Part shown: piece by piece, positions 6,745 to 6,775 of the stretch
Position numbering within the stretch: the stretch's first letter is position 1
Layout: each line of letters begins with the position of its first letter
Source: a virus
Taxonomy: Duplodnaviria; Heunggongvirae; Uroviricota; Caudoviricetes
Reading direction: 5' to 3' (one strand)
DNA length: 8,059 bases
Virus record (IMG/VR): IMGVR_UViG_2737471861_000013
Span: 1 to 8,059 of that record
Notes under the pieces: model-generated
The model's database searches: none
What the model was told of the DNA's origin: nothing
What the model saw: only the letters and a program-made list of their open reading frames with translations
Position numbers and translations under genes: made by a program

Positions 6745-6775
6745 GCGCCCTACAGGACGCTTAGCTCTTTAACAA
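6745..6775 (+). promoter_or_regulatory. Putative nut-like antitermination element: boxB-like hairpin followed by a boxA-like GCTCTTTAACAA
   Basis: GCTCTTTAACAA (6764..6775) matches the rrn/phage boxA consensus as recalled. Immediately upstream is a small hairpin GCGCC-ctaca-GG(a)CGC. It lies between the OL-like operator and the first downstream plus-strand gene. Confidence 0.35.

Follow-up and report, generated by a model that had tools for sequence, protein, structure and literature searches.

An rrn-type boxA joined to a putative opposite-strand terminator, and a widespread structured leader RNA, in the early-left leader of a lambdoid prophage without an annotated N gene

Here we show that the early-left (PL) leader of a lambdoid Escherichia coli prophage carries an exact copy of the boxA of host ribosomal RNA (rrn) operons, that this boxA is conserved as a unit with a strand-asymmetric hairpin in front of it, and that the unit faces a convergent gene and is accompanied by no N-like partner. 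Positions 6739-6780 of the DNA analysed are best explained as a two-faced portable module placed where the immunity region meets a convergent accessory-gene slot. At a probability of about 0.5, we read the boxA as an rrn-type, N-independent Nus-factor site that would shield the PL transcript from Rho over approximately 875 untranslated nucleotides (nt). Upstream of the module lies a structured RNA, here called M1, which the first-pass annotation of this DNA overlooked and which is no weaker than boxA as a candidate for atypical antitermination.

In textbook lambdoid phages, early transcription passes termination signals only with the N protein or, in HK022, the put RNA. Many prophages common in enterobacteria, among them SfIV, SfV, ST64B, e14 and CPS-53-like ones, have no N gene, and we know of no explanation for how their long PL operons are expressed. 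A conserved rrn-type boxA suggests that such a phage may sustain early transcription without N.

The window, as we call the whole stretch of 8,059 nt analysed, was recognized as the immunity region of a lambdoid prophage of E. coli from its open reading frame (ORF) list, a terminator scan and Pfam. The plus strand encodes an S24-type cI repressor (4408-5169) followed by a ParA-family ATPase (5340-6416), whose gene has a strong terminator of its own at 6424-6443 and fills the place, between repressor gene and PL, that is taken by rexAB in lambda. On the minus strand are a cro/YdaS-like gene (4358-4095) and genes for CII-like, O-like replication, PerC, Dam and RusA proteins. Iteron-like CAAAATCTGAC repeats at approximately 2795-2869, inside the O-like gene (2229-3170), probably mark the replication origin and gave a false mir-5880 match in Rfam. 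A prophage located beside tRNA-Thr/proA in E. coli OkiPb01716 matches the window at 100% identity; there the plus-strand unit is ordered ydfC-like gene, convergent ECs1072-family gene, yfdP, yfdQ, yfdR, excisionase and integrase. Because this operon runs on to xis-int, the spacer at 6450-6820 was taken as the PL operon leader. Within it, the palindrome TTGCTACTTtAAGTAGCAA (6635-6653, no strand assigned) overlaps the presumed PL promoter and resembles TGCTACTTaaAATAGCA at approximately 4389-4405 in the cro/cI spacer; the two are probable OL and OR operators, respectively. The promoter was predicted from its -10 element, CATAAT (6654-6659, plus strand), the -35 element being poor in the window, and SfIV and e14 have TTGACA-16-CATAAT at the homologous position. 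The earlier statement that no N or Q protein is recognizable holds for the window itself, and the PGAP annotation contains no N gene anywhere in the OkiPb01716 prophage, but a Q-family antiterminator is present in the other arm of that prophage, approximately 2.4 kb past the left end of the window.

What had been described as a close match to the boxA consensus proved to be exact and to lie on the sense strand of the PL leader. The sequence GCTCTTTAACAA at 6764-6775 (plus strand) agrees with the rrn boxA at 12 of 12 positions, and is identical to the E. coli rrn leader boxA, TGCTCTTTAACAA, as read from a real rrn operon. It is the sole match in the window at two or fewer mismatches (an exact boxA is expected by chance 0.01 times per window, with 2 occurrences in 200 shuffles), and no other exact boxA was found when 24 kb of this prophage were searched. 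Reading the rrn operon directly, we found that the E. coli leader is laid out as hairpin, AAC and UGCUCUUUAACAA, and the 16S-23S spacer as hairpin and then UGCUCUUUAAAAA-UCUGGAUCAAGC. The phage layout is hairpin-UA-GCUCUUUAACAA-UCUGG, rrn-like in both its order and its 3' flank (boxA plus flank, 6764-6780, plus strand), and the extended flank UCUGGAU is that of the spacer boxA. The rrn boxC, UGUGUGGG, is absent after the phage boxA; the sequence there is UCUGGUCCCC, with the spacer-type flank in its place. The element is situated approximately 100 nt past the PL operator and -10, with the long operon to xis-int ahead of it, and ends 45 nt ahead of the ydfC-like start codon. No second boxA was found on the PR side, and the only candidate for a boxB hairpin 3' of boxA (approximately 6791-6808, with an 8-nt loop) was no better than shuffled sequence. 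Within the same interval, CCCCUUC and GAGGAGG, the latter being the Shine-Dalgarno sequence of the ydfC-like gene, can pair on either side of a small hairpin (6784-6815, plus strand), a fold whose stability likewise was no better than that of shuffled sequence.

In rrn operons, antiterminators are arranged boxB-boxA-boxC in the leader and hairpin-boxA in the 16S-23S spacer, and assemble a complex of NusA, NusB, NusE and NusG with SuhB and S4. Like these, the phage element has its hairpin first with boxA 1-3 nt behind, combines a leader-identical boxA with a spacer-identical 3' flank, precedes a long untranslated RNA, and apparently needs no phage protein. Unlike these, it resides in an mRNA leader rather than in an rRNA operon, has no boxC, and has a hairpin that is unrelated in sequence and built as an opposite-strand terminator; its Nus dependence is putative. 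It shares with the nut sites of lambda, P22 and phi21 the placement of boxA in the PL operon leader after OL/PL. It differs from them in its reversed order, the hairpin standing upstream of boxA as the first-pass annotation had correctly observed, in a loop that is not conserved, unlike the GNRA-like loop of the nut boxB, and in having neither an arginine-rich N gene nor a PR-side site. The first gene of the operon (6821-7027, plus strand, 68 aa; Shine-Dalgarno GAGGAGG at 6808-6814; PGAP) begins at 6821 and not at the TTG at 6806, belongs to the YdfC family (41% identity to K-12 YdfC, E 9e-18; PHROG 1744) and contains 2 Arg among its 68 residues, in agreement with the earlier remark that it is not N-like and has no arginine-rich motif. 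Among other loci the first gene varies greatly and is nowhere annotated as an antiterminator; an N-like first gene was thus ruled out.

The hairpin itself appears to belong to the opposite strand. On the plus strand it is imperfect, AGCGCCC-UACA-GGACGCU at 6744-6761 (8 bp when taken as 6743-6762), and its 3' end is 2 nt short of boxA. The terminator scan called it on the minus strand only, as an intrinsic terminator (6739-6762) formed by AAGCGUCC-UGUA-GGGCGCUU (6762-6743), with an 8-bp stem (5 G-C pairs), a 4-nt loop and UUUUUUGUUGCU; the minus-strand U6 (6744-6739) overlaps the stem end and is followed by GUUGCU. Predicted folding energies are approximately -11.5 to -12.6 kcal/mol for the minus strand versus -7.5 kcal/mol for the plus strand. 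A conserved C/A mismatch in the plus-strand stem is a U-G pair on the minus strand in nearly all of the 55 contexts collected, and two independent stem variants bring further C/A mismatches on the plus strand that are G-U pairs on the minus strand, one variant favouring the plus strand. The loop is unconstrained, with at least 12 variants. In all 39 distinct contexts a convergent minus-strand ORF (78-255 aa) ends 9-225 nt beyond boxA. The distance from gene end to module is 223 nt in the window, where the ORF is an ECs1072-family gene transcribed towards the hairpin (6999-7433, minus strand, 144 aa; identified from the ORF list, PGAP name and PHROG 5286), and 9-25 nt in many other contexts. 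A weaker minus-strand terminator-like site was detected by the scan at 6917-6892, and Rfam 15, searched with the window and the leader, returned only weak terminator-like matches on the minus strand in the hairpin region. Given minus-strand pairing, U6 and a convergent gene stop in every context, we conclude that the hairpin is a putative intrinsic terminator of the convergent gene. The same evidence, with the unconstrained loop, led us to abandon its earlier interpretation as a boxB-like partner in the rrn manner, and a boxB-type N-binding site was ruled out by the free variation of the loop.

Conservation in relatives, which the first-pass annotation had put forward as a check, was evaluated with two samples: an IMG/VR scan for boxA plus flank, and 224 loci picked only by the upstream M1 core and hence unbiased towards boxA. 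In the M1-anchored set the hairpin occurs in 30 loci, representing 19 distinct contexts, and in 19 of 19 it is followed by U-N-GCUCUUUAA[C/A]AAU-cuGg. The conserved module comprises approximately 45 nt (A-tract, hairpin, boxA and UCUGG(AU)), similarity beginning at an A5-8 tract on the 5' side and ending 6-11 nt 3' of boxA. The sole variable boxA position, position 10, toggles between C and A, that is, between AACAA as in the rrn leader and AAAAA as in the rrn spacer, and in two loci the match to the E. coli spacer is perfect over 19 nt, GCTCTTTAAAAATCTGGAT. By blastn the hairpin-boxA segment was found in SfIV, Kati and related phages, and in Klebsiella phages that carry it without the upstream leader. 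Hairpin and boxA form a fixed unit in related and unrelated prophages alike, and the element passes the conservation check. The module sits behind differing upstream elements (M1, a second leader module termed M2, or a gene) and precedes at least four unrelated convergent gene families; the unit therefore behaves as a portable module.

Families seen in the convergent slot include A (loci L148, L187 and L130), B (L096 and L081) and D (L175), and among their products are a coiled-coil protein with Cys pairs, a membrane-protein-like sequence and one with a signal-peptide-like start. Pfam was uninformative for the slot genes, which may be exclusion or defence genes expressed in the lysogen. Separately, three IMG/VR contigs (L135, L153 and L205) have promoter-(hairpin)-boxA-UCUGGA leaders directly before tRNA genes; these are predicted to be phage tRNA operons with rrn-style antiterminators.

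Downstream of the first gene, three-frame translation revealed approximately 875 nt of PL transcript (7028-7901, plus strand) without a credible sense ORF, in part antisense to the convergent ECs1072-family gene. Long untranslated or antisense RNA is a classic Rho substrate, and this region is therefore presumed to be Rho-sensitive. Intrinsic terminators were considered as the barrier downstream of M1, but few were found: strict sense intrinsic terminators occur within 3 kb after the leader in 17 of 138 loci, and antisense ones in 59 of 138. This distribution fits an obstacle posed by Rho or by antisense transcription better than one posed by intrinsic terminators, and moved our model towards Rho. 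The same stretch contains an STnc100-like RNA (7544-7766, plus strand) that scored 42.2 bits, below the Rfam gathering score of 47, and over which PGAP/RefSeq annotates a 'frameshifted' pseudo-CDS. STnc100-like DNA recurs approximately 700-1000 nt past M1 in roughly a third of related loci, as judged from clusters of ORF artefacts.

We propose that the module would act on both strands. On the minus strand, the hairpin and U6 would keep the convergent transcript out of the repressor gene and PL. On the plus strand, boxA would appear in the PL transcript directly behind a weaker plus-sense hairpin and would be bound by NusB/NusE, which with NusG, NusA and SuhB would render RNA polymerase rrn-like and Rho-resistant without N. 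The modified polymerase would then cross the antisense and non-coding region at 7028-7901 and reach yfdP and the genes through xis-int. Host-factor-dependent or otherwise atypical antitermination, as suggested in the first-pass annotation, is thus the best current explanation of boxA, in which we have moderate confidence, but the hairpin that had been included in it is reassigned to termination on the opposite strand. Nus-factor binding, antitermination and the involvement of Rho at this boxA are predictions from sequence. There is precedent for Nus/boxA action outside rRNA: consensus boxA elements in the non-rRNA leaders of suhB (5' UTR) and a ParE-like toxin gene act on Rho-dependent termination (PMC5725501), and the same is reported for the leaders of CRISPR arrays, where, as on rRNA, boxA confers Rho resistance (PMC7665894). 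Unlike these, the phage boxA lies in the early operon of a temperate phage and is fused to a convergent terminator.

Several observations count against antitermination. The module is present in only 30 of the 224 M1 loci, most relatives coping without it and many of these having convergent genes; no rrn boxC follows the phage boxA; and in several other contexts boxA lies 30-50 nt before a possible start codon. Selection on boxA need not account for all of the conservation of the module, part of which could come from the recent dissemination of a single terminator cassette, and the complement of boxA could serve some function in the convergent gene's 3' UTR, where it falls.

It is possible, although we hold it only tentatively, that M1 and not boxA is the main antitermination device and that the boxA module is an optional add-on. 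M1 (6669-6732, plus strand) was defined by covariation, RNAalifold and a covariance model. It is closed by helix P1 (6669-6674 with 6727-6732), the outermost pair of which, 6669/6732, is C/U and unpaired in the window, and contains an invariant 24-nt core, GGCAGGACGCCCACGAAGUAGCCG (6677-6700), a second helix, P3 (6701-6705 with 6718-6722), with a conserved 12-nt loop, and a junction AUGA (6723-6726) that is nearly invariant, as are the core and the loop. A gap-free alignment of 105 distinct sequences was used for the covariation test. P1 and P3 cells were paired in 95.5% of cases versus 19-50% for slid partners, compensatory changes occurred in 10 of 14 pairs, the observed score was reached by none of 500 shuffles, and RNAalifold recovered identical P1 and P3 helices. 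Candidates for a P2 helix in the core (6677-6679 with either 6685-6687 or 6697-6699) fall in invariant columns. The copy in the window scores 87.8 bits with the covariance model, which detected M1 once per locus and at no other place in the window. Neither M1 nor boxA matched Rfam 15, whether the whole window was searched or the leader alone at E up to 10.

M1 is widespread. It was identified in highly diverse temperate phages, namely SfII, SfV, SfIV, ST64B, SPN3UB, mEp237 and mEp460, as well as in Citrobacter phiNP, Pantoea AH07, Yersinia YeP1-3 and Pectobacterium ZF40. Its core is present on more than 120 IMG/VR contigs, and a leader query (6600-6830) spanning M1 matched 1572 of 5426 complete E. 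coli genomes (approximately 29%). With the covariance model, full-length M1 was found in 63 of 80 species-level genomes, almost all of them Enterobacterales; two of the records are labelled Pseudomonas and Chryseobacterium. E. coli K-12 carries a copy in e14 (NC_000913.3, 1202109-1202178, minus strand), between ymfK and ymfJ. RefSeq holds no non-coding annotation at the M1 site, the core sequence was printed in no paper that we found, and literature searches on e14/ymfJ and on prophage antitermination RNAs returned nothing relevant.

Placement and context are what make M1 a serious competitor. In every locus examined it begins 8-25 nt past a sigma-70 promoter that comes after the repressor gene, which is the position of putL (PMC9378689). 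Variable sequences and genes follow it, pointing to the absence of a local expression platform, and all-against-all ORF clustering of 7-kb flanks on either side at 128 loci identified no universal protein family except several repressor types. Its position and its portability, with no local expression platform beside it, make a put-like role, directed at polymerase or Rho, the most attractive reading of M1, for which it is a candidate. M1 is far commoner than the boxA module (224 M1-anchored loci versus 30 with both), is found upstream in 44 of the 55 boxA-module contexts, and is carried by mEp237 and mEp460, which belong to a collection of Nus-dependent phages. These features, together with strong covariation in two helices around an invariant core, would suit a cis-acting, promoter-proximal RNA that modifies RNA polymerase or blocks Rho in the manner of HK022 putL, a role that M1 might conceivably fill.

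The resemblance to put, which in HK022 works alone on RNA polymerase by way of the beta-prime zinc-binding domain, is one of setting. Like HK022/HK639 put, M1 is a structured RNA of N-less phages; it measures approximately 64 nt, comes immediately behind PL and has no obvious partner protein. For comparison, HK022 putL was rebuilt from the genome and its numbering checked against PMC9378689. M1 proved to be a separate sequence family, with no sequence or model similarity to put: blastn matches of put define a disjoint set of phages, and put-region loci of HK022 and HK639 scored below 9 bits with the M1 model. Its helices are also arranged differently, as a closing helix around internal hairpins instead of two tandem stems, and it is present as a single copy, with no second one on the PR side. 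Homology to HK022 put was rejected, and the shared words ACGAAC and GGAUGA, which fall in covarying helix positions of M1, were not counted as evidence for it. The scarcity of strong sense terminators downstream also weighs against M1 as an antiterminator, and a stability, translational or processing element, or a riboswitch, would be alternatives. Other identities were considered by eye and dropped: a CsrA site (the GGA has its GG among the covarying positions of P3), a mini-ORF of three codons (AUG AUU CGU UAG; no Shine-Dalgarno spacing), and a k-turn or hammerhead. With the reserve that these points impose, M1 may represent a cis-acting RNA of a new class that renders the PL complex termination-resistant in N-less enterobacterial prophages, analogous to put with an unrelated fold and acting in some phages jointly with a borrowed rrn boxA.

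The M2 leader module mentioned above (...GCGCAGNAGGU..AACGUUCCGC-loop-GCG-UAAGGCA) forms a small covarying hairpin. It occurs just after M1 in two loci (L007 and L008), at 2960-3003 of L130, and in the dicA-ydfA spacer of K-12 Qin (L233, approximately 5440-5490). In Gifsy-like phages it is located upstream of a small conserved ORF (MIDFARKP..., approximately 40 aa), and in Qin upstream of ydfA.

Should boxA act in the PL transcript, it need not act against termination. The suhB boxA represses translation and promotes Rho, a mechanism demonstrated for suhB and the ParE-like toxin gene (PMC5725501), and Nus factors on the phage boxA might similarly hinder ribosome binding at the first gene, promote Rho and damp PL expression. 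The 45-nt distance to the ydfC-like start would permit this, as would the Shine-Dalgarno sequence and ATG found 30-40 nt after boxA in several other contexts. We nevertheless consider it unlikely: what comes next, only 9-25 nt on, is in most contexts the tail of the convergent reading frame and not a sense start, the spacing of the module is fixed to the hairpin and not to any start codon, and repression of the whole PL operon, including xis and int, would bring no evident benefit.

Least probable of all is that boxA has no plus-strand function and that the segment simply provides a mobile convergent-gene cassette, recently spread horizontally, with its 3' UTR and terminator. The hairpin clearly has the make-up of a minus-strand terminator, and the very alike module sequences indicate recent common descent. 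Against this, the 45-nt module stays constant beside cassette genes of at least four unrelated families, similarity stops on one side just after boxA and on the other just ahead of the A-tract, chance is very unlikely to yield an exact 12-mer and less likely still to yield as many as 19 nt of rrn spacer, and the one variable position switches between two host forms of boxA.

For N-less prophages, one suggested answer to the question of early expression is therefore a copy of the host rRNA antiterminator, placed where the phage transcript runs antisense through an opposing accessory gene. A one-way terminator fused to an opposing antiterminator would be a compact means of insulating convergent transcription units. 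The other suggested answer is M1, a very widespread and unannotated leader RNA that, if it acts on RNA polymerase or Rho, would be the second natural class of antiterminator RNA after put. Both suggested answers are open to genetics in E. coli K-12.
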